The position numbers and the translations under genes were made by a program. DNA of 10,285 bases from Candidatus Hydrothermarchaeota archaeon (GTDB lineage: Archaea > CAYFZR01). Each line of letters opens with the position of its first letter. Position 1 is the stretch's first letter. The stretch is taken from assembly GCA_046760505.1 (NCBI GenBank), contig JBHIEG010000045.1:1-10285 (forward strand). The letters run 5' to 3'. A model generated the notes under the pieces. That model worked only from the letters and a program-made list of their open reading frames with translations, was not told where the DNA came from and did no database searches. Shown one piece after another: positions 252 to 10,285 of the stretch.

Positions 252-395
252 TCTTAAAACTAAACAAAAGATTATTGAAGAATATCTGTGAAGATACCCA
301 AAGGATTTGAAGAAAAGTTCAACCGACTAGAACCAGAGCAGAAAGAGAATTTAAAAATAAAACTGTCATCTGTCATCGCAGAAGAATTAAGATAA
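244..395 (+). pseudogene. Small, possibly ribbon-helix-helix-like gene split by a frameshift (or two tiny ORFs, 244-291 and GTG 288-395)
   Basis: ATG244 gives MNNLKTKQKIIEEYL*; the -1 frame reads RISVKIPKGFEEKFNRLEPEQKENLKIKLSSVIAEELR* to TAA 393-395. One extra A near 278-279 would fuse them. RISVKIP resembles an RHH beta strand. Confidence 0.35.
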
Positions 396-749
396 AAAAC
401 TGATTTTCTTGGGGGGATCTGGAGTATCTACTCTTAACTTCTTTATGACAGCTTTCTTCCCTCTTCCTCTCCTGAAACAGAAAACGAAGAAAGTCGGTAT
501 CCCAAACTTTTTCCATATCTCATACAATCTCTGCCATTGAAACTTGTCTTTTTTTCCGAAATAGAATGTGCTAAACTTCTTATGCCTTGATTTAACTTGT
601 AAGAGTTGGATATCATAGCTATTTCCCTTCGGTTTTATACATACAAGATCAGATTCCCCATAACTTGAACTGGCTCTGAAGACTAACCAATTTTCTTCCT
701 TTAATTGATTCCTGATCTTATCTTCACTATAATATCCTCGTTTAACCAT
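387..749 (-). CDS. hjc: Archaeal-type Holliday junction resolvase (Hjc family, PD-(D/E)xK nuclease)
   Basis: RG..SE.KI...L.EENWLVFRASSS.G.SDLV...LLQVKS follows the Hjc pattern (G-x3-E, FR-x-x-x-S, D-L-V, E/Q-V-K). ATG at 749 (MVKRG) fits family length better than the TTG at 797, which lies inside a structured RNA. Confidence 0.85.
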   Translation of the reverse strand: MVKRGYYSEDKIRNQLKEENWLVFRASSSYGESDLVCIKPKGNSYDIQLLQVKSRHKKFSTFYFGKKDKFQWQRLYEIWKKFGIPTFFVFCFRRGRGKKAVIKKLRVDTPDPPKKISFLS

Positions 750-755
750 ATAAAC

Positions 756-845
756 CAGACTAATGGACCGCAGTATTATGACGGGAAGGTATAGCAAAAC
801 CCGCCACTATCTCACGATAGCAGGATACTGCGTTTATCCAGTCTA
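756..845 (-). ncRNA. Structured RNA with canonical bulge-helix-bulge motif (candidate 71-nt archaeal intron, 833-763)
   Basis: Minus strand: UAGACU/AGUCUG outer helix, GGAU/GUCC 4-bp helix, AAA (835-833) and AUU (764-762) bulges, CGCAGUAU/AUACUGCG inner helix, enclosing CUAUC-GUGA-GAUAG (GNRA loop) and UGGCGGG/CCCGUCA. G-U pairs and the GNRA loop fix the strand. Confidence 0.75.
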
Positions 846-1505
846 ACCATAGAACCCTTTATCTAAAAATTTGTTTAATATATTCTTCATCTTTAGTCTG
901 AACACGTCAAGATCATCCTTCGAGCCAAATTCTTTTATTGCTCTACCCATTGCCAATGTACAGCCGAGCCAAATATTGAAAACCTCGTTAACATCGTTTG
1001 ATTTTAGCATTTCATAAACTTGCCACTTACTTTTTTTCTTTATCGGTATCTGAGCTAGCGGAGTGTCTATCCTCTTAATTTTTTCTATCACCCTGATTGT
1101 CGCCCCTGCTAGCGATAACATAAAATTCATTAACATACCGTTCTTAGCGGATTGTATCAAATCGTGTATCCTGTTTTCTGGTATTTGTAATTCTCTAGCC
1201 CAGTTTTTTAAAATATCTTTTTTCCTTTTCAAACTTGTTCCACAGTTTGGACAATTATCTTGAGTTTCTATGTCTATCTCTCCTTTACAGTTATCACACC
1301 TCGTTAAGAAATTTTTGACCTTGTTTGGGTTTATCTGCCTCCCGATTGAAATACATAATTTTCGGTTATAATGACCAGTCTTAGTTGATTTCTCTGGTAA
1401 TAATGATATGTAAATATAAGGGTCGTATAAAAGTAAAGTTCTATCCGAGCCCAACATAAACCAAATATCTTCCCTAAGTTTTTTGTATTTCGGCATTAAA
1501 ATCAT
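843..1505 (-). CDS. Hypothetical protein with zinc ribbon
   Basis: 220-aa ORF with CDNC...CPNC; ATGA overlap with the upstream gene at 1502-1505. Confidence 0.8.
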   Translation of the reverse strand: MILMPKYKKLREDIWFMLGSDRTLLLYDPYIYISLLPEKSTKTGHYNRKLCISIGRQINPNKVKNFLTRCDNCKGEIDIETQDNCPNCGTSLKRKKDILKNWARELQIPENRIHDLIQSAKNGMLMNFMLSLAGATIRVIEKIKRIDTPLAQIPIKKKSKWQVYEMLKSNDVNEVFNIWLGCTLAMGRAIKEFGSKDDLDVFRLKMKNILNKFLDKGFYG

Positions 1506-1753
1506 AACCTGAAATGTTTTATCCTTCCTTCTTTCAGATCAATTATCTCCATAATTTCATCCACTACTAATCGTTCTCCCCCAATAAAAACCTCTTTAGA
1601 TGAAAGTGATGGACGGCGGTATTCTCCATAAGTAACGAGTATTCTTTCCTCGTTAATCTCGATTAAAAAGGGCTTTTTTGTCTTCCTTACTCTATTCAAT
1701 GCTATGTTCCATAGTTCTTTTTCATGTTTTCTTTCTAATCTCATAGTTTCCAC
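1502..1753 (-). CDS. Hypothetical protein (83 aa)
   Basis: Fills the gap between MCM and the 220-aa gene on the same strand; GTG start 9 nt after the MCM stop (alternative ATG at 1744). Confidence 0.75.
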   Translation of the reverse strand: METMRLERKHEKELWNIALNRVRKTKKPFLIEINEERILVTYGEYRRPSLSSKEVFIGGERLVVDEIMEIIDLKEGRIKHFRL

Positions 1754-1762
1754 AGAACCACT

Positions 1763-3823
1763 CTAGACTTTTTCTAAGAATCCGGGTTTTATCTCGAACA
1801 GTATGCCCTCATTCTTCATCTTTGTTATCAGTTGTTCTATCTTGAAGATGGTAAGATCAGGATACATCTTGTTAACTTCGCTCACTAAATCTTGTTTGGG
1901 AACTGGTTGTTTGTTCATTACATTCTTCAAATCTGTGAATACTTTTCCTATTATTTCCATCTGTGTAAGTTGTGTCTTGCTCAATCTTCCCTCTGTCATA
2001 GGTATTGATATCTCTCCGGTTTCAGGTACAAAACCGAACTGTTTGAGGGAAGTGACTAAAAGCCTCTTGGATTCTTTAAAGTCTTCCATATCCGCATATT
2101 TTTTAAGTCTTAACTTTGCTATCGATTCTGTCAACCTTCTCATCGTCTCCAAGACTCTCGGGGTTATGTTAATTTCTTTCTCTTTGCTCTTCTCCCTTAG
2201 TGCGAGATAGTATCGCCTCATCTCTTCTTTAACATCTTCATTTATGACGGGTTTTTGTTGTCTGGCATAGAGTATGTATTTGAGTAGCAACTCTTTCTTG
2301 ATGGGAGCTTGTGGTTGTTCTGCCCCAAGAAGTAGGTTGGAAATTTTTTCATCCCTCTCCATTTCTATAATGTCTTTGATTGCCCACAGTAGGTCGAATC
2401 TTTGTAGTATAACAGTTTTGTCTGTCTTGTCTGAAAATTTCACTTGGTCGATATAGGGAATATAAGCATCGAAGTATCCATACTGTGGGTTCATAACTGC
2501 TATTAGTGGTGTGTTTATCTTCATCGTCGCCACTATTCCTGCTTTTGCTAGATTAATTTGTTGCTGGCTCAATGCTGTCTTCAAATCTTGTAAATGCTCT
2601 TTCTTAATCGCTTCAAACTCATCAATTATGAGAAGACCCGATGATGCCTGGACTAATGCCCCCCCTTTCAATAAGAATATGCCCAAATCTGGATCCTTTT
2701 CCAACGCAAACCCCAAGCCAACTTTAGTGATATTCCCACTTGTAATGTAAACACATCTTGGAAAAAATTGTTGTAGGTAAAGGTTTATGGTCGATTTCCC
2801 AGTTGCTGGTTCGCCACACCAAAGTTGATGGATTTCTTTTCTCCTGAATACCCCCCCTTCTGTATATTCGTTACCACCAACCAATTGTAGTAACGTGCTC
2901 TCTTTAACATAATTCAAACCAGATATGCCTGGACAGAAAGAATCGACAAGAAGTTCCAGAATATTATCTTTATTCGATAATCTTTTTATTTTCTTTACAT
3001 CATTTTCTGTTATCTCAACGCTTATATCTCCCATCACGTTTATACAAATTGCTTTGACCATAGCCCTGTTTCCTACTTGTGCGACGAAACCAATCACAGT
3101 CACATTCTTACCTGGCAGATATCTCTTCTTCATCGGATCTGTCGTATCCATTAGTTTTCCAAACAGGATAATAGCGACAGATGTCGGAGTGGCCATCGTT
3201 TGCATGGGTTCGACTAACTTTAACAATTGATAAGGCTCACGCTTCTGTTTTTTCTCAATCTCGACAAAGACTCTATGTTTTTCACAGGCCTCACAGTAGA
3301 GCCTTTTTTCTTTGTTTGTTTGGAATATTTCTCGCTTTACAGTTCTTACAAAGTCGCATTTGGGGCATTGATATACACTCTCCTTAACATACGATTGAGG
3401 ATGACTAACATATTGTATTCTCCCTTCGAGTTTTACTAACTTTCCATCATACTTCGGTAGGAAACAGTCCTCTAAATGAACCTCAATATCTTCTGGGAAA
3501 TTATCAAAAACTAGTATTTCTCTCACAAAATCCAACAGAACTGTTTTCTTATCCTCTGTATCTGGCACGACATAACTCTCCAAGAAAAGTTTTAAAGTAT
3601 CATTCTCGATAAAACAATTTATAATGAGATTGTATATTTTTTCAGGTTCTTCTTTAAATTCTTTCCAGAAATCAATGTCTTGTGCCATACAGAAGTTCTG
3701 GAGCGAGGATAAGTCGATAGTTGCTCTCCCTTTTTTTATTTCCTGTCCAATCTTCTTTAGCCGTTCCTTACCATTATCGTAAACCCAGTTTATGAATAGG
3801 TCTTTAATTTCTTGATCTTTCAT
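1763..3823 (-). CDS. mcm: MCM replicative helicase
   Basis: Zn finger CPKC...CEAC, Walker A GEPATGKS, GGALVQA, Walker B IIDEFE, QQQINLAKAGI, MNPQYG, arginine finger QRFDL, sensor-2 ITPRVLE, C-terminal winged helix. Full length, no intein. Confidence 0.97.
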   Translation of the reverse strand: MKDQEIKDLFINWVYDNGKERLKKIGQEIKKGRATIDLSSLQNFCMAQDIDFWKEFKEEPEKIYNLIINCFIENDTLKLFLESYVVPDTEDKKTVLLDFVREILVFDNFPEDIEVHLEDCFLPKYDGKLVKLEGRIQYVSHPQSYVKESVYQCPKCDFVRTVKREIFQTNKEKRLYCEACEKHRVFVEIEKKQKREPYQLLKLVEPMQTMATPTSVAIILFGKLMDTTDPMKKRYLPGKNVTVIGFVAQVGNRAMVKAICINVMGDISVEITENDVKKIKRLSNKDNILELLVDSFCPGISGLNYVKESTLLQLVGGNEYTEGGVFRRKEIHQLWCGEPATGKSTINLYLQQFFPRCVYITSGNITKVGLGFALEKDPDLGIFLLKGGALVQASSGLLIIDEFEAIKKEHLQDLKTALSQQQINLAKAGIVATMKINTPLIAVMNPQYGYFDAYIPYIDQVKFSDKTDKTVILQRFDLLWAIKDIIEMERDEKISNLLLGAEQPQAPIKKELLLKYILYARQQKPVINEDVKEEMRRYYLALREKSKEKEINITPRVLETMRRLTESIAKLRLKKYADMEDFKESKRLLVTSLKQFGFVPETGEISIPMTEGRLSKTQLTQMEIIGKVFTDLKNVMNKQPVPKQDLVSEVNKMYPDLTIFKIEQLITKMKNEGILFEIKPGFLEKV

Positions 3824-4885
3824 CTAAATCCTCAAATTTATGGTTTTTTCTCTGAATGTTTCAGGGTCTAAATCTATACTCACTATTCCTATCTTTTCCA
3901 TCAGAAGAACCCATTTCCTGAGTGTTGAGTACGCCCATTTTTTACCCTTCTTTTTCTTCAAAAAATTGTGAAGAAGGGAGATGCTACTGATGTGCCCTTC
4001 AAACTCATCCCTTATAATCTGATAGAGATACTTTAGGATAACTCTTCTCGATTCGTCTCCTATCTTCTCCCTAAGAACGTTCTCGAAGTAGGTTTTTTTC
4101 AGGGTAAGTGATACGAATTCTCTGTCTAGTTTCTTATTTCTTTTAAGTTCAATTGCCTTCATCAGACAAATATCACACGCTATCAATACATTCCTCGGTA
4201 TGCCGTTTGATATATAGTGTATTTCTTTCAGAGCTTCTTTTGTGAAGGGATAAGTTTCTCCAACCTTGTCATCAGTCCTTGCTTTCTTGAGTCTTTTTTT
4301 GATTAAGAGTGTTGTCTCTTCCAGAGAAAAGGTTTCCAAGTTAAAAGGCATGAACTTACCAAGAACGAGGCTTATATCTTCAAAGATGTTGTAATGTTCG
4401 GTGTTCATCGCCACTATCAGCGAGCATTTTTTGTATCTGAGGGTGTATTCAATGAATTCAGCTACATCCGCCATCTGCGACCTCGTAATCATATCGGGAA
4501 AGTCAAGAAAAAAATAGGGTTTTTTTATTTCAAAAAATTTTTTTAGGTTTGAACTGCTATCATTTGTAATTTTTCCTGTTATGATCTTGTTAAGGTATAT
4601 ATCACCCTCTTTTAGCTTCCTCACCTCGTTTCCGGGAACGTAGAATGTCGATAGGTTGCCTCCATGCTTGTCTATCATTTCTTTACAGAGGAAGAGTGTG
4701 CTTGTTTTCCCGCTACCTCGCTCGCCTTTTATTAGATAATAGAGGGGACTTATAGCCCCAAACGATAGTTCTAGTCCTGTTAGGAGTGTTTTTTGGGTCG
4801 GAAGAACGATGAATGGTTCCGATTTGAAGTCGTTGTAGTCAACGACTGTTTTTCTGAAGAAGGGATTTTCCTTTAAGAGAAACAT
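3824..4885 (-). CDS. AAA+ ATPase with C-terminal winged helix; putative Orc1/Cdc6-like initiator or helicase loader
   Basis: Walker A GERGSGKT, atypical Walker B YFFLDFPD, lid motif SNGIPRNV, C-terminal helix plus wing (YSTLRKWVLLMEKIGIVSI); stop abuts the MCM ATG. The initiator role is inferred from architecture and context. Confidence 0.75.
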   Translation of the reverse strand: MFLLKENPFFRKTVVDYNDFKSEPFIVLPTQKTLLTGLELSFGAISPLYYLIKGERGSGKTSTLFLCKEMIDKHGGNLSTFYVPGNEVRKLKEGDIYLNKIITGKITNDSSSNLKKFFEIKKPYFFLDFPDMITRSQMADVAEFIEYTLRYKKCSLIVAMNTEHYNIFEDISLVLGKFMPFNLETFSLEETTLLIKKRLKKARTDDKVGETYPFTKEALKEIHYISNGIPRNVLIACDICLMKAIELKRNKKLDREFVSLTLKKTYFENVLREKIGDESRRVILKYLYQIIRDEFEGHISSISLLHNFLKKKKGKKWAYSTLRKWVLLMEKIGIVSIDLDPETFREKTINLRI

Positions 4886-4908
4886 AACTAATAATAATTA
4901 TTAACTTA

Positions 4909-4923
4909 TTTATAAAGATTTCG
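4909..4923 (-). promoter_or_regulatory. Archaeal BRE-TATA promoter of the ATPase-MCM-hjc operon (probably leaderless mRNA)
   Basis: Minus strand CGAAATC-TTTATAAA ending 23 nt before ATG 4885, with no SD in between. Confidence 0.6.
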
Positions 4924-5036
4924 ATAATTGAAATATTGAAATAGGTGAAATAAATTGTAAATATGATAATTAAAATGAGGTTATTACTAGGAAAATTTTT
5001 TTGTGAAACAATGATTATTTCAAATATTTCAATTAT
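4924..5036. repeat. 20/21-bp inverted repeat flanking a 72-bp AT-rich spacer; candidate replication origin
   Basis: ATAATTGAAATATTGAAATA (4924-4943) is the reverse complement of TATTTCAAATATTTCAATTAT (5016-5036) apart from one gap; extra TGAAAT unit at 4946-4951; lies just upstream of the ATPase-MCM operon. Confidence 0.6.
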
Positions 5037-5081
5037 TCTTTATTTCTTATATAAAAAATTCTCTTTATATATATACGGGAC

Positions 5082-5118
5082 TTATCGTACTTAAAACTTA
5101 TTTCATTTATCGCACTTA
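5082..5118. repeat. 12-bp direct repeat TTATCGYACTTA
   Basis: TTATCGTACTTA 5082-5093 and TTATCGCACTTA 5107-5118, 11/12 identical, 25 bp apart. Confidence 0.5.
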
Positions 5119-5197
5119 TTTTTTCAGTAAACTTTATAAACTATTGCATCAAAATATTAAGAACCGAGCAAAAGGAATTGAAGATTGATCGAACGGT

Positions 5198-5358
5198 TTA
5201 TAAATCCCTTCTAGAAAGAATTTCTTCAAAACGATCAAGGTCCTCTTTAACTATTTCTTCACAATCCTCTAGCAACCCCCTCAGATTTTACTCTTGATAG
5301 TATTCGATTTAAGGACCGAATGCAACCGTATCAACAGGTCGGACCGTCTAACTTCCAT
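5198..5358 (-). pseudogene. Small helical hypothetical gene (about 53 aa) broken by a one-base frameshift
   Basis: ATG5358 gives MEVRRSDLLIRLHSVLKSNTIKSKI*; the adjacent frame reads NLRGLLEDCEEIVKEDLDRFEEILSRRDL*. One more A in the A4 run (5286-5289) fuses them. TTTAAATA box ends 25 nt upstream of the ATG. Confidence 0.4.
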
Positions 5359-5364
5359 AGTTAC

Positions 5365-5391
5365 TTTATAGATATAAAATATCTATTTAAA
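5365..5391. promoter_or_regulatory. Palindromic operator overlapping two oppositely oriented TATA-like boxes
   Basis: Perfect ATAGATAT-AAA-ATATCTAT at 5368-5386; TTTATA on plus at 5365-5370 and TTTAAATA on minus at 5391-5384. Confidence 0.5.
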
Positions 5392-5456
5392 CTAACGGGG
5401 ACAGTAGGGTTGCGATGAACAATAGAATTTTGGACTTTTAACCCATAAAATAGAGA

Positions 5457-5550
5457 GGAGATGCCCACCACTCATCTGTGGTCATCATGTGAACCTTGGC
5501 TGTATCTCATCGTGCAGTAAGACGAAGAAGAGCAACTAGTCAGCATCTCC
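5457..5550. ncRNA. Candidate 94-nt structured small RNA
   Basis: GC-richer island closed by GGAGATGC/GCATCTCC; internal hairpins ACCAC-TCATCT-GTGGT and GCTGTAT-CTCATC-GTGCAGT. G-U pairs favour plus, but a TATA-like box at 5580-5573 would suit minus. Confidence 0.45.
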
Positions 5551-5591
5551 GTTTTAAGAATTGTATTTGAAATATAAATATTTTTTAACAG

Positions 5592-5608
5592 AAAAAGTAT
5601 AAAAAAAA
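5592..5608 (-). terminator. Oligo-T archaeal terminator
   Basis: TTTTTTTTATACTTTTT on minus, 5 nt after the stop of the 44-aa ORF, ending the long upstream gene run. Confidence 0.55.
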
Positions 5609-5613
5609 TTACT

Positions 5614-5748
5614 TCAGGCTGACTTCTTCTCATAATACTTCTGTTTCTTTCTCCATTTCTTGAGCAGCCTCTGATTCCTCTCAATTATCTCCTCTTTCTG
5701 CTTGACGTGTTTCAGTACTCGTTGGTATCCTGTCATATTTGTTTTCAT
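5614..5748 (-). CDS. 44-aa basic helical microprotein (not in ORF track)
   Basis: MKTNMTGYQRVLKHVKQKEEIIERNQRLLKKWRKKQKYYEKKSA; starts 19 nt after the peptidase stop, purine-rich like neighbouring genes, followed by a T-tract. Confidence 0.7.
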   Translation of the reverse strand: MKTNMTGYQRVLKHVKQKEEIIERNQRLLKKWRKKQKYYEKKSA

Positions 5749-5767
5749 TACTTATTAAATGGTAAAA

Positions 5768-6517
5768 TTAATGTATAGACACAATTTTTCTTCTCTTTAA
5801 TGGCGGAACCAACTTTAGAGACCCATCTCCCTCGAAACGGAAAATGTTCACACAAACAGGATAATCGGCATTTGCTCGGTCCAACGATTCTTTTATGGTC
5901 ATGCCTTGACTCGTGTAATTAAAAAAAGAACCCAGCCATTCACGGCTAACATCCCAACATAATTCTCCTCTTGAGTCGCCAAGACCACATCCCCCAACTA
6001 CAGCCGTGTTTTTGTTAGATCCTTTACGGAACTGATATGATAATGTATTGTTTCCTTGCTCACACATAGAATCACACCCATGTAAAAATGTGAATGGAAT
6101 TTTTGAATAATTTTTCATCCAATCACTGATATTGTAGTACCATATATCCCCATCTTCTGCCTCAAAAACCCTGTAGCTGCCATGGGCTATTACAAACAAG
6201 GATGCTGTGTCATCATGTTGTATTATTGATTTTATTTCTTCATGCGTAAAGTTTACTGAAGTTTCGTTGATATTATATCCCATTTTTTTAAACCAGCTTG
6301 TCACAATTTCAGCTCGCTCATACCAGTTGTCCCCGTCCCCGGTATAGCCCATCGAGATAGAATAAGCGTTTGGTTGAGCAAACAATAATGATACTAAAGA
6401 AGTTTCAATAGCAATCAACATCCCTAAAACAAATAGAAAAATGATGACGAGTATTCCGACCCCCCTTAGCATACAGGTCATAATCCTCATTCTAGTCGCA
6501 AAGTTGTATGGCTTCAT
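5768..6517 (-). CDS. Membrane-anchored/secreted clan CD cysteine peptidase-like protein (gingipain C25/caspase fold)
   Basis: N-terminal hydrophobic helix; LFVIAHG (His) and FTFLHGCDS (Cys) each at the end of a hydrophobic strand; C-terminal FEGD-x-x-L-x-L like the C25 GDP motif; six N-x-S/T sequons. True start may be a later Met (6490 or MLRGVG). Confidence 0.7.
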   Translation of the reverse strand: MKPYNFATRMRIMTCMLRGVGILVIIFLFVLGMLIAIETSLVSLLFAQPNAYSISMGYTGDGDNWYERAEIVTSWFKKMGYNINETSVNFTHEEIKSIIQHDDTASLFVIAHGSYRVFEAEDGDIWYYNISDWMKNYSKIPFTFLHGCDSMCEQGNNTLSYQFRKGSNKNTAVVGGCGLGDSRGELCWDVSREWLGSFFNYTSQGMTIKESLDRANADYPVCVNIFRFEGDGSLKLVPPLKRRKIVSIH

Positions 6518-6540
6518 TTAACCCGCCTACTGCTCTGACT
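6491..6540 (-). ncRNA. Relaxed BHB-like structure (no outer helix)
   Basis: AGUC/GACU 4-bp helix with AGA following on both strands, inner GCA/UGC and GUAGGC/GCC(A)UAC pairing; flanks do not pair. Confidence 0.3.
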
Positions 6541-6558
6541 TCTACTTTTAGGGTTCAT

Positions 6559-8502
6559 TCAATCCTCCCAGCTCCTTATAATTTCTTCTATCTCTTTAAC
6601 AGCAACATTAATATCTTGGGAAGTTGGCTTAAATGCGGACAGCTCATCTGATATTTTATTCTTTATGTTATAGTTGACTCCATGAGTATCTAACTTGACC
6701 AACTTATTCTTGATTAGACGTGAGATATTACCCCTATTAATTTCTTCGCCTAACGCTTGAGAAATTCTTTTAAACGGTTTTCGCCTCGATATTATCAAGA
6801 ATTTCAATACCCTTCTTTCCAGAGGAGTTATTTCGTTCACGATCTTCACTATTTTTTTGATTTTCTTTTCGATAAAACCCTTAGCGATTTTCCTCTTTTC
6901 CTCTGATATCCTTGGTTCTTTAATTCTCTTTATTGAAATTGGTTTCTTTGTTCGAGGTTTTCTGATCCTTCTTGGAGCATCAAAGAGTTTTAAAGGCTCT
7001 CTAACGAAGGTTTGAATGTTTATCTTAAAACCTTTTTCAACCAATCCATGAAGTCTACGTCTATACTTATAAAATTCCTCTTCGGTCATAAGAATATCAT
7101 GAACCCTTACTTTAGACATAGAATGAAGTAATCTTCCACTTCTTTGAACTTCTTGACGGATACTAGAGAAAAGGAAGTCCGCCTCTATAATATGCTCCAA
7201 ATCTTTTAAGCTGATTCCATAATCAGCGACCCTGCTTACAACAATAACATTCTGTTTTCTCAAAACTTCTAGTCTTTTTTTAGTTGCACCATAAATGAAG
7301 GGAGTATTTAATTTTCTTGCTATAGTTTTACCAAAATCTATGCCATCCGAGAATATGAGTGTTTTCTTATCAAAATCAACAAGCTCTTTGACTCTCCTAA
7401 TCTTTTCTGTCTGGTTCTTTAAAACATGTACATTAACTTCATGATAGGTTTTACCTAGAATTTTCATCAAAGAAGACCAGTCCTGTCCTAGCGGAAAGCC
7501 TGTAAGTGCGATCACATAATTTGTTCTCCCATCCATTCTGTGAGGTGTTGCTGTGAGTCCAATCCTATATTTTGTTTTTAAGGTTGATAATCTGGCAAAG
7601 GTATTAGCGGGCAAGAAGACAGATTCATCAAAAACTACACAAGTAAATTCCTTTTCTTTAATCTTTTCCCACGCATGATAAGTACAAATTATCGTTTCAT
7701 CTAACAGTCTAGGAGCGTATTTTTCAAGATACTCTTTCCATTGATCGATCAAAGTTCTCGTCGGCGTGATAATAGCTTTTAAACCATTCAGAGAATCCAA
7801 TGCGTACATCGCAAAAAAACTTTTCCCACTCCCAGTAAACCAGTATATACCAACTGCTCCTGTTTCGAGAAATTTTTTAAAAGCATCCATCTGGAAAGAA
7901 TATTTTCCGCTTAGAGTGAAGTTAACCTGAGGCTCTCTTAAATCCTCTCCTGAAACAGGTTTAGGAACAAAAGGCAAACATCCAGACTCAATTATATTTG
8001 CTATTAAATCGAATTCCTTTCCTGTTTTAATTCTTGCCTTTCCCTTTCCCACAGAAGTCAAATATCCTCCATATCTGCTATGAATTATCTCTTCAAACCC
8101 CTCTGGGAATGAAAGAACACCGTCTGTAACCCTTAAATCTAAGGGTTTTTTGAAACCAAATTCTTCTCTCATCCATTCTGGCATTTCTCCAAACCAGGAT
8201 GTATATCTATTGATGATAGAATAATTGTATGTCTCATCAGAATGGTCAAGCCAACCGGCACTAAATTTTATCCATTTTGGAATTATAAGCCACCATTCAT
8301 TTCTTTTCCTTGTTGGTACTGATGCCCAAGATTTCTTCAAGAATTTCTTGAATTCTTCACTATCCAAGTCAATCTTATGTATTTTTGATAGCTCTTTTAA
8401 TTTCTCTACGTACTCGTTCTTTAACTGAGTAACCTCTTTTTCGAGAGTTTTCATATCTCGTTTGATAGTTTCTAGCAATGATGGGATTTTTTCATCAAGC
8501 AT
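6559..8502 (-). CDS. XPB/Rad25-like superfamily 2 helicase with N-terminal coiled coil and C-terminal winged helix
   Basis: Q motif YSFQ, motif I TGSGKS, Ia ITPTRTLIDQW, II VVFDESV (atypical), III GLTATPHRMDG, VI QRSGRLL. Confidence 0.9.
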   Translation of the reverse strand: MLDEKIPSLLETIKRDMKTLEKEVTQLKNEYVEKLKELSKIHKIDLDSEEFKKFLKKSWASVPTRKRNEWWLIIPKWIKFSAGWLDHSDETYNYSIINRYTSWFGEMPEWMREEFGFKKPLDLRVTDGVLSFPEGFEEIIHSRYGGYLTSVGKGKARIKTGKEFDLIANIIESGCLPFVPKPVSGEDLREPQVNFTLSGKYSFQMDAFKKFLETGAVGIYWFTGSGKSFFAMYALDSLNGLKAIITPTRTLIDQWKEYLEKYAPRLLDETIICTYHAWEKIKEKEFTCVVFDESVFLPANTFARLSTLKTKYRIGLTATPHRMDGRTNYVIALTGFPLGQDWSSLMKILGKTYHEVNVHVLKNQTEKIRRVKELVDFDKKTLIFSDGIDFGKTIARKLNTPFIYGATKKRLEVLRKQNVIVVSRVADYGISLKDLEHIIEADFLFSSIRQEVQRSGRLLHSMSKVRVHDILMTEEEFYKYRRRLHGLVEKGFKINIQTFVREPLKLFDAPRRIRKPRTKKPISIKRIKEPRISEEKRKIAKGFIEKKIKKIVKIVNEITPLERRVLKFLIISRRKPFKRISQALGEEINRGNISRLIKNKLVKLDTHGVNYNIKNKISDELSAFKPTSQDINVAVKEIEEIIRSWED

Positions 8503-8509
8503 TTTTAAA

Positions 8510-9367
8510 TCACTTCCATCTTTCTAGAACTAGAGTTTTTGCCCTTTCTCTTAATTTTTGTCTATACTCCGGTGTTAATTTTTTGGGAACTCCTCTCATG
8601 GCACTAATCATCCTGTTTCTTATTAAGGGATTTCGCCACGCCTGTTCAACAGATTCTGAGATTTTATTTTTATGCTGAACACTCATATAGGGGCTTCTTT
8701 TAAGAGTCGATTCAAGTTTATAATGCATAACATTTGGAACGAATGGTTTTATGAGTTCGATGAACTTTTTTTCGTATCTTTTCGTTATTTTTAAGAGATG
8801 CGAGCTTTTGTCTAATCTTACTCTTATACCGAATTTTTTGAAGAAGAACTCTTTGAGCAAATCCAGATCGTCTAAAGAAAATCCATCAGTATGAAAAACA
8901 ACCTCGTTATAGTGAGAACCGTCATCACAAAGCCATATCGCTAGGCCAAGCCCATTTAAATATCCAAGCTCTGATTCTGGAACTCCTTTTTTATCATTTG
9001 GATACCAAATCTTTTTTAAATAAGTTAAGCTTTGACTTGCATTAGTGAATAAAAATCCTTGGAGGAAAATCTTTTCTGTGCCTCGAGGGAATTTTGATTT
9101 TATGTTATATTGATATATCTTAACTTTTAACCATCTTGACAATATTTTTCCTTTCCATTTGAGATACTCTATATTATCAGCATGCTCTTGATAATAGGCA
9201 TTCTTGTAATCTTTAGGGATATAAATACAACCATCACCAAGCATACACCCCACCATAACCTCTCTGAATTTGTTGTCTGAAAGCAAATCATCATTTGGTA
9301 TCCCTCTTCGTCCCCAAGTTTTAGTTTTATAATTTTGGGGCGTTAATTCAATTATCTTATTCTTCAT
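8510..9367 (-). CDS. Free-standing two-motif LAGLIDADG homing endonuclease with basic NUMOD3-like tail
   Basis: MVGCMLGDGCI and GLAIWLCDDGS motifs, YPNDKK.VP linker; tail HKNKISES...TPEYRQKLRE; own GGTGA SD at 9376-9372; no intein termini. Confidence 0.88.
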   Translation of the reverse strand: MKNKIIELTPQNYKTKTWGRRGIPNDDLLSDNKFREVMVGCMLGDGCIYIPKDYKNAYYQEHADNIEYLKWKGKILSRWLKVKIYQYNIKSKFPRGTEKIFLQGFLFTNASQSLTYLKKIWYPNDKKGVPESELGYLNGLGLAIWLCDDGSHYNEVVFHTDGFSLDDLDLLKEFFFKKFGIRVRLDKSSHLLKITKRYEKKFIELIKPFVPNVMHYKLESTLKRSPYMSVQHKNKISESVEQAWRNPLIRNRMISAMRGVPKKLTPEYRQKLRERAKTLVLERWK

Positions 9368-9387
9368 ATCTTCACCAATAGCCTTTC

Positions 9388-9939
9388 TTAGTTTTTAGAA
9401 CCATCCTTTTTACGTATTACAAGGGAAAATGTTGGTATAAAAGACTCATCGGATAAAAAATCAATCTCTTCTTGAGCTCTCATCGCTTCATTTTTCCAAA
9501 AAGTTTTTAATTTTTCATTAGTAGTTTCTTCAGACATGATTACAGCCATACTGAACCTTTGTTGAGCAGAAATAATCTTTTTACAAGTTTCACAAACCTT
9601 CCACCTGGCTAAACTACCATTCGGGTCGGGAATTAGAACTCTGCCTGAGAATATGCCACAATAAACACACTTTCCATCCTTACCTTCAATGATTTTATTA
9701 GATTCTTTATCCATCTCTTCCCAACGCTTTAATATATCTTCTTTTTTAGTTAGTTTTGGATGTTCGCATCCCTCATGGCATCCCCAACCACAGAATGTGC
9801 AGTAAGGCTTATGTGTAATGTTCAACCAAATAAACTGTTTTATCGGATCTATAAAACTCCACCTAAACCAAAAACTAAATCCATCTTTGAACCCGAACAG
9901 TTCTATGCTATGTTTTAAAATTATCCCTCTCATGCCCAT
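9388..9939 (-). CDS. Hypothetical Cys-rich protein with two putative Zn-binding clusters
   Basis: 183-aa ORF: CTFCGWGCHEGCEH and CVYC...CETC. Confidence 0.8.
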   Translation of the reverse strand: MGMRGIILKHSIELFGFKDGFSFWFRWSFIDPIKQFIWLNITHKPYCTFCGWGCHEGCEHPKLTKKEDILKRWEEMDKESNKIIEGKDGKCVYCGIFSGRVLIPDPNGSLARWKVCETCKKIISAQQRFSMAVIMSEETTNEKLKTFWKNEAMRAQEEIDFLSDESFIPTFSLVIRKKDGSKN

Positions 9940-9943
9940 CTCT

Positions 9944-10010
9944 AGATCTGTGGAAACTAGGAGTTAATCATCACCATTACGGCTGTTGGGCTCCTAATCT
10001 CTTCCACTCT
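9944..10010 (-). ncRNA. Second canonical bulge-helix-bulge element (candidate 54-nt excised RNA, 10001-9948)
   Basis: Minus strand: AGA/UCU outer helix, GUGG/CCAC 4-bp helix, AAG (10003-10001) and AGA (9949-9947) bulges, 10-bp inner helix AGAUUAGGAG/CUCCUAGUUU with two G-U pairs. Confidence 0.65.
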
Positions 10011-10023
10011 TTTAATTATACTA

Positions 10024-10254
10024 TCATCCAATATAAGATGGTCTCCACTCTCTCAATATTCTCTCCCAAGTTTCTATGGCTTTTTCTTTTCCCCCTTCAA
10101 CTGTGATTCCTTTTCTCTCTAGTCCTTCTACAATCTCTCTTGGTGTAACAATTTTGTTCGGATTTTCCAAACAACCACACTCAATCATTACTTCTATTAT
10201 AGCTTGTCTTAATTCTTTATATGTAATCTTTTTGTCATTCTTTTCATTTTTCAT
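10024..10254 (-). CDS. Hypothetical protein, possible (winged) HTH DNA-binding protein
   Basis: 76-aa ORF; LRQAIIEVM...VTPREIVEGLERKG resembles a wHTH pattern; double stop TGA TAG. Confidence 0.7.
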   Translation of the reverse strand: MKNEKNDKKITYKELRQAIIEVMIECGCLENPNKIVTPREIVEGLERKGITVEGGKEKAIETWERILREWRPSYIG

Positions 10255-10285
10255 TCAAACACAACACCAAAATCTTTCTTCGTAA

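Follow-up and report, generated by a model that had tools for sequence, protein, structure and literature searches.

Can a mobile element of an archaeon have its messenger RNA processed by the tRNA-splicing machinery of its host? This question is raised by a contig of 10,285 bp assigned to a Candidatus Hydrothermarchaeota archaeon (JBHIEG010000045.1 of assembly GCA_046760505.1), on which an MCM-encoding element carries ten genes on the minus strand. A first-pass annotation of the sequence had proposed that three of the longer gene junctions fold into bulge–helix–bulge (BHB) motifs, the substrate of the splicing endonuclease EndA, and that host EndA and RtcB act on the mRNA of the element. The window analyzed here is the complete contig (C45 of an archaeal metagenome-assembled genome (MAG) of 2.17 Mb in 142 contigs); DNA of the element is present in hydrothermal-vent metagenomes. 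We found that two of the three motifs, termed A and C, are canonical and lie on the coding strand, while the third occurs at chance level. On the evidence of these motifs we consider it fairly probable that the host EndA indeed recognizes and cuts A and C, as cassettes in two intercistronic spacers of a minus-strand polycistronic mRNA. The motifs and the RNAs predicted to be released from them are as follows.

753..848, minus strand: BHB motif A, complete form (hBHBh′), descriptor score 45
763..833, minus strand: predicted excised RNA A, 71 nt, with the cut rule applied as on host tRNA introns
9944..10010, minus strand: BHB motif C, descriptor score 39
9948..10001, minus strand: predicted excised RNA C of 54 nt, in which a 10-bp stem closes a loop of 27 nt

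Descriptor and validation on host tRNA introns

The descriptor reads, from 5′ to 3′, outer helix, 4-bp helix, 3-nt bulge, inner helix, interior, inner helix, 4-bp helix, 3-nt bulge and outer helix. It follows the definition of the BHB in PMC4090602, namely a central helix of 4 bp and two bulges of 3 nt. Pairs were scored as 3 (G-C), 2 (A-U) and 1 (G-U), G-U pairs being permitted, and cuts were placed after the second base of each bulge. ARAGORN detected introns in four of the 49 tRNAs of the host MAG. In three of these four, the best descriptor match reproduced the intron length given by ARAGORN (14, 46 and 18 nt), and the fourth resolved into two BHB introns of 32 and 15 nt, which add up to the 47 nt of ARAGORN. 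The five host tRNA-intron BHBs scored 29–37, so that both C (39) and A (45) score higher. The bulges of A and C also have the same polarity as those of the host tRNA introns, being located 3′ of the central helix on both strands.

The tRNA with the double intron is a side observation of its own. ARAGORN reports it as tRNA-Phe(aaa) with a single 47-nt intron (MAG contig C112, 2143–2267), yet it is better read as containing a 32-nt intron near position 25/26 and a 15-nt intron in the anticodon loop. The 32-nt intron would thus lie at a non-canonical site, in an archaeon whose only EndA is small.

Structure of motifs A and C

The outer helix of motif A (848–840/761–753) comprises nine pairs, the inner six of which are formed in the fold. 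It is followed by a central 4-bp helix (839–836/768–765, GGAU/GUCC) of three Watson–Crick pairs and one G-U pair, by 3-nt bulges at 835–833 (AAA) and 764–762 (AUU), and by an inner helix of eight Watson–Crick pairs (832–825/776–769). Both flanking helices are therefore present, with 6–9 bp in the outer and 8 bp in the inner one. Folded in a context of 176 nt, the full motif represents the minimum free energy (MFE) structure at 37, 55 and 70 °C, with pairing probabilities of about 0.8 for the central helix, about 1.0 for the inner helix and 0.4–0.6 for the inner six pairs of the outer helix. Its score is the second highest in the MAG, behind a match of 47 on contig C57 and tied with one on contig C103. 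Motif A overlaps only an upstream TTG extension of the reading frame of the Hjc-like gene that follows it, and the last bases of the preceding gene for a 220-aa protein. The excised RNA A would be more stable than its shuffled versions (fold z = −3.23, 0 of 200 shuffles equally stable), and its GC content of 49% ranks at the 99.5th percentile among contig windows of equal length. The interior (824–777, 48 nt) forms two hairpins, one with a GUGA tetraloop, and reaches z = −2.62 on its own.

Motif C has an outer helix of 3 bp only (10010–10008/9946–9944). Its central helix (10007–10004/9953–9950, GUGG/CCAC) consists of four Watson–Crick pairs, the 3-nt bulges are at 10003–10001 (AAG) and 9949–9947 (AGA), and the inner helix (10000–9991/9963–9954) has 10 bp including two G-U pairs. 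Pairing probabilities were 0.8–0.95 for the central helix and mostly 0.8–1.0 for the inner helix, the two outermost pairs of which had 0.13–0.65. For the excised RNA C we obtained z = −3.44 with 2 of 200 shuffles equally stable, and a GC content of 46% (96.5th percentile of same-length contig windows). The described geometry of a 4-bp helix with 3-nt bulges 3′ of it on both strands was thus found exactly at both sites. The predicted 3′ cuts, which the first-pass annotation had placed shortly before a start codon at three sites, fall, in agreement with it, 13 nt ahead of the AUG at 749 (Hjc-like gene) for motif A and 8 nt ahead of the AUG at 9939 (183-aa gene) for motif C; the third site holds no BHB.

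Comparison with shuffled sequences, decoys and the whole MAG

The highest-scoring descriptor matches in the window were all on the minus strand: A (45), C (39), an AU-rich hairpin at 5645–5587 (38) and a match at 4014–3959 inside the gene for a 353-aa protein (34). When the whole window was shuffled with its dinucleotides preserved, 3 of 441 sequences reached a score of 45 and 27 (0.061) reached 39, while a second match of at least 39 appeared in none of the 441. A first set of 100 shuffles contained on average 0.10 matches of at least 38, compared with the three observed. Shuffling of the single spacers never restored the real score (0/1500 each for A and C). Searched on both strands against such controls, the contig yielded two canonical motifs well beyond chance.

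The host genome served as a further background. The whole MAG contained 34 matches of at least 38, three of them in this 10.3-kb contig, where about 0.16 would be expected by length. Most MAG matches of at least 37 (43 of 51) overlapped open reading frames (ORFs) of at least 80 aa; of the eight that did not, A included, one is the tRNA-Trp intron and this contig contributes three. Decoy geometries, which preserve all properties of the real sequence, gave a consistent picture: with a 4-bp central helix and 25 pairs of bulge lengths, the 3/3 combination alone found A and C, and the only other pair with a match of at least 38 was 4/3, at the AU-rich hairpin 5645–5587. When the 124 MAG matches of at least 35 were ranked by the lowest of their three helix probabilities, A came first and C sixth. 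Within the gene rows, no gap is longer than the two that hold A and C, and each motif is on the coding strand. With the cassettes removed, 22 and 30 nt of spacer would remain, comparable to the −4 to 41 nt of the other gaps.

One MAG match outside the window deserves mention in its own right. The minus strand of contig C1 (106294–106372) carries a very stable intergenic hairpin with a BHB score of 44 (z = −7.65, 0 of 200 shuffles), whose MFE structure prefers a 4 × 3 internal loop over the BHB register and which matched neither Rfam nor a tRNA. It may represent an undescribed host non-coding RNA or an EndA substrate.

Rejected sites and readings

Two further sites were considered as BHB motifs and discarded.

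6518..6558, minus strand: spacer B, claimed as a relaxed BHB; rejected
5587..5645, minus strand: AU-rich hairpin (27% GC) where a 44-aa ORF ends, with runs of U behind it; score 38

Spacer B, in front of the gene for a 249-aa protein, was the third motif of the first-pass annotation. It contains only ACCC/GGGU, a lone helix of 4–5 bp with UAA after each strand and no flanking helix. Since there is no helix on either side, these UAA triplets do not constitute bulges. The descriptor gave no match in this spacer even with flanking helices reduced to 2 bp, and the fold was no better than that of shuffled sequences (z = +0.67), so that the relaxed motif was dropped. The AU-rich hairpin at 5645–5587 was rejected as well: the probability of its central helix was 0.01–0.15, and it folds with a 3 × 3 internal loop.

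A long-range BHB with 151–2500 nt between its halves, for instance one that bounds the LAGLIDADG gene, was not supported, as three matches of at least 38 compare with 0–4 in each of ten shuffles. The motifs are not fragments of a tRNA or of an att site either; ARAGORN found no tRNA gene in the window, and no similarity to host contigs was detected. Splicing that fuses reading frames was likewise discarded: translation of each upstream gene ends before the 5′ cut, and neither joint is crossed by an open frame. Finally, the loop of excised RNA C displays a C-box-like GUGAUGA. C/D box RNAs carry a C box (RUGAUGA) and a D box (CUGA) that are joined by a terminal stem. RNA C lacks the CUGA of a D box, RNA A lacks both boxes, and neither site matched a C/D family, which argues against a C/D box small RNA (sRNA). 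Among all Rfam families, none matched at A or C.

Host enzymes and proposed processing

The MAG encodes candidates for both enzymes. The catalytic domain of EndA had a single match in the MAG, located on contig C24 in the same 172-aa ORF as the N-terminal domain. The latter domain had one match above the cut-off and a second one, on another contig, below it (16 bits, E = 0.017). Judged by its translation, the ORF adjoins a tryptophanyl-tRNA-synthetase-like gene. With its 172 aa, the predicted EndA fits the homotetrameric type. A full-length RtcB is encoded as well. On contig C89, an open frame of 817 aa contains a second RtcB match in two separate parts, suggesting a copy that contains an intein or is interrupted in another way.

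In analogy to the established processing of archaeal tRNA, rRNA and the haloarchaeal HVO_1309 transcript, we infer the following sequence of cleavage, ligation and circularization. Upon read-through from the upstream gene, each spacer would fold into an hBHBh′ structure, and an EndA of the homotetramer type would cut after the second base of each 3-nt bulge, thereby releasing the 71-nt RNA from A and the 54-nt RNA from C. The 5′ exon would be left with a 2′,3′-cyclic phosphate. The 3′ exon would begin with a 5′-OH, located 13 nt upstream of the AUG of the Hjc-like gene or 8 nt upstream of that of the 183-aa gene. Joining of the exons by RtcB could follow, which would reduce the spacers from 93 to 22 nt and from 84 to 30 nt, and RtcB could also circularize the excised RNAs. 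The proposal of the first-pass annotation, that host EndA and RtcB act on the mRNA of the element, is thus partly supported, namely by two motifs beyond chance, by the enzyme genes and by the precedent of HVO_1309. Its further terms, an "expression system" that "gates translation" and yields "circular RNAs", are at the level of what one may infer from such processing.

Weighing of alternative explanations

Several observations weigh against processing by EndA. The four closest loci with a homologue of the element's helicase (L003–L006) displayed no BHB in their spacers. The outer helix of C reached a pairing probability of only 0.17–0.35, and euryarchaeal α4 and α2 EndA enzymes are described as strict for the canonical BHB (PMC4090602). 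In A, the 3′ bulge slides by one base, and readings with a central helix of 3 or 5 bp score within 2 points. The ranking by helix probability is uncalibrated, the true tRNA-Trp BHB being outside its top 25. By reading of the sequence, a TATA-like stretch at 10020–10013 could start transcripts that lack the 5′ half of C. Furthermore, the link between the contig and the MAG, and hence its EndA, rests on binning (GC content 35.4% versus about 38%).

Some of these points would equally suit the assumption that A and C are structured RNAs that serve a different function, be it as protein-binding sites, as translational operators or as stabilizers of the transcript between cistrons, which are uncut in vivo and resemble a BHB by coincidence. 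Structured elements are frequent in operon spacers, and A and C are indeed stable, GC-rich hairpins directly ahead of start codons. In addition, the genes behind them lack a clear Shine–Dalgarno sequence of the GGUGA or GAGGA type that can be read ahead of several other genes, which points to a special control of initiation. Together with the weak outer helix of C and the sliding bulge of A, these features speak for such a role. However, two unrelated sequences exhibit bulges of exactly 3 nt that are exactly 4 bp apart and oriented alike; the 24 other bulge-length pairs tried with a 4-bp helix all miss A and C, and Rfam offers no family for either site. We therefore regard a coincidental geometry as rather unlikely. 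Still less probable, in our view, is that the motifs never form in vivo, with the downstream genes being transcribed from internal promoters and the repeats acting as DNA or representing unprocessed relics of mini-introns. AT-rich, TATA-like stretches were indeed noticed by reading, before and inside C (10020–10013) as well as inside A (around 779–774, about 25 nt before the AUG), and leaderless or short-leader mRNAs are common in archaea. Yet in a contig of 35% GC such words are frequent by chance, the ten tightly packed genes on one strand suggest read-through transcripts, and the G-U pairs (one in the central helix of A, two in the inner helix of C) speak for folding of the RNA from the minus strand rather than for a cruciform in the DNA or a fold of the opposite strand. 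A chance fit of two hairpins to the descriptor, finally, seems most improbable. A shuffled window yields about 0.1 match of at least 38, and about 31 MAG matches of this score lie outside the contig, mostly inside ORFs and presumably without meaning. Against this stand the absence of two matches of at least 39 from all 441 shuffles, the local shuffles (0/1500 each), and the location of both motifs on the coding strand in intra-row spacers that amount to about 180 nt of the 20.6 kb covered by the scan.

Possible roles of the excised RNAs

Returning to A and C as candidate EndA substrates, we asked what their removal might achieve. The 220-aa and 76-aa genes both reach their stop codon ahead of the 5′ cut, and splicing would therefore leave every protein as it is. 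Its effect should thus be sought in the excised RNA or in the leader of the downstream gene, or in neither of them if the cassettes are selfish. For A, we favor a functional excised RNA, since its interior is a stable, GC-rich three-way junction far beyond the needs of removal; control of the downstream gene is the alternative purpose. A broader scenario would be that this MCM-type element carries structured RNA genes as BHB cassettes, which are freed as circles by host enzymes while the mRNA is rejoined or segmented, and that at least one of these RNAs acts in trans on genes of the element. We put this forward tentatively, as a possibility that is on balance doubtful.

A complementarity within the contig touches on this scenario. 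The 3′ half of cassette C (9963–9947, comprising inner helix, central helix and bulge) is complementary at 16 of 17 positions to minus-strand RNA at 1756–1740, the start region of the gene for an 83-aa protein, where it covers both the GUG start and an in-frame AUG at 1744. Of 300 shuffled cassettes, not one had a 16/17 match at any place on the contig. By duplex energy, however, pairing of the excised RNAs with the start regions of 11 genes revealed no outlier, the site of the 83-aa gene included. Going by the sequence match, the start of the 83-aa gene may be an antisense target of excised RNA C, or the complementarity may be due to chance. Short words shared by the excised RNAs and the host genome were no more frequent than by chance; for RNA A, 11 12-mers matched, against an estimated expectation of about 18.

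Relation to known systems

The closest likeness is to HVO_1309 of Haloferax volcanii, where, according to Schwarz et al. 2020 (PMC7714728), a 46-nt BHB intron in the 5′ untranslated region is excised, was found as a circle and is cut in vitro by EndA. As in A and C, a BHB-bounded segment lies in untranslated mRNA upstream of a protein gene, and its removal leaves the protein unaltered. The difference is that HVO_1309 is one gene on the chromosome, with conservation among haloarchaea and experimental proof, whereas we are dealing with two predicted cassettes of 71 and 54 nt in intercistronic spacers of an orphan, MCM-encoding element. The intron in the crenarchaeal cbf5 pre-mRNA (PMC2738675; cited in PMC7714728) shares with A and C that the transcript of a protein gene is processed at a BHB by the tRNA-splicing machinery. 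It interrupts a coding sequence, however, and its removal restores the frame, while A and C join no frame. A third comparison concerns the tRNA-Trp intron that itself constitutes a C/D box sRNA and the BHB stems of pre-rRNA. According to PMC12558985, EndA frees functional, structured and often circular RNAs from these precursors, and the rRNA stems punctuate a polycistronic transcript. The hosts of those motifs are stable RNA genes; moreover, A has no C/D boxes and C has only the C-box-like heptamer.

BHB introns embedded in mRNA are thus already known, and what would be new here is the intercistronic setting in a mobile element. A search of full-text literature yielded no paper on BHB motifs in transcripts of an archaeal virus or plasmid, subscription journals and supplements lying outside this search. 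The EndA targets known so far are tRNA, rRNA and two kinds of cellular mRNA. If EndA cuts A and C, the tRNA-splicing machinery also processes mRNAs of mobile elements. An essential enzyme, hard for the host to withhold, would then be at the disposal of a plasmid or virus for producing small circular RNAs or for timing its gene expression.

Relatives of the element

Homology searches returned little beyond the helicase, and the element is nearly an orphan. Searches of viral_contigs with the MCM, the helicase and the 183-aa protein revealed no relative. In the MAG itself, blastn and tblastn detected only the host MCM (29% identity). A search at the level of the order and phylum covered two genomes, the second of which lacks the helicase. 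An alignment of the MCM found three MCMs of 25–29% identity in GTDB genome contigs, and collections of phages and plasmids contained distant helicases only. Two homologues of the MCM (43% and 37% identity) were present in other assemblies, and the 220-aa protein had one homologue of 58% identity, on a contig of 934 bp. Homologues of the helicase were numerous (417 at E ≤ 1e-5). The 80 metagenome loci with a helicase homologue had no other gene in common with the window; a BHB scan of these loci, which differ in GC content, gave 26 matches of at least 38. No copy of the cassette sequences was found in the genus or in viral_contigs.

In DNA contigs from four runs of one study, the element was unchanged across A and C and no cassette-less form appeared; these runs may all be source samples, in which case the agreement is uninformative. 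The contig of one run extends about 3.8 kb past position 10285. Among the seven sequencing runs listed as containing DNA of the window (700–10285), none is an RNA run.

Gene content of the contig

The remaining features are given in the order of the minus strand.

10024..10254, minus strand: gene for a 76-aa protein, upstream of C; stop codon at 10026–10024, ahead of the motif
9388..9939, minus strand: gene for a 183-aa Cys-rich protein, downstream of C; AUG at 9939, no family match
8510–9367, minus strand: free-standing homing-endonuclease gene of the LAGLIDADG_2 family (Pfam, E = 2.8e-24)
minus strand, after the LAGLIDADG gene: XPB/Rad25-like helicase gene
minus strand, after the helicase: gene for a 249-aa protein without family match
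between the 249-aa and 353-aa genes: non-coding stretch of 882 nt
minus strand: gene for a 353-aa P-loop protein, followed by the MCM helicase gene
minus strand, adjoining MCM: gene for an 83-aa protein; GUG start, in-frame AUG at 1744
843..1505, minus strand: gene for a 220-aa Zn-ribbon protein, upstream of A; stop codon at 845–843 inside the outer helix of A
387..749, minus strand: gene for an Hjc-like protein of 120 aa from the ATG at 749, downstream of A

Successive genes are separated by 84, 20, 7, 41, 882, 0, 9, −4 and 93 nt, which bears out the earlier statement that most minus-strand junctions measure 0–20 nt. Two gene labels were revisited. The 249-aa protein had been called a peptidase, a name that its lack of a family match leaves unsupported. 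The label Hjc-like is weak, with 19 bits to the Pfam family Hjc against a cut-off of 21.1 bits, and a sequence search of the PDB gave no match for this protein.

The LAGLIDADG_2 gene is placed between the 183-aa gene and the helicase gene and ends 7 nt ahead of the helicase start; its distance from the upstream motif C, across the 183-aa gene, is about 580 nt. Some helicase homologues elsewhere contain inteins with LAGLIDADG domains in place of a free-standing gene.

Within the 882-nt non-coding region, the minus strand shows a GC-rich peak (52%) at 5430–5560. This segment has a 9-bp terminal stem around some 75 nt and contains AUGAUGA- and CUGA-like words in permuted order; Rfam returned only insignificant C/D-box matches (E = 7.6) for it, and its fold gave z = −0.9. 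At the other end of the window, positions 1–400 contain small plus-strand ORFs that read as Cys/His zinc-finger-like and converge with the Hjc-like gene. Stretches around 133–166 are also present, between different flanking sequences, in several further contigs from the DNA runs mentioned above, and the left end of the window is thus repeated or variable in the community.

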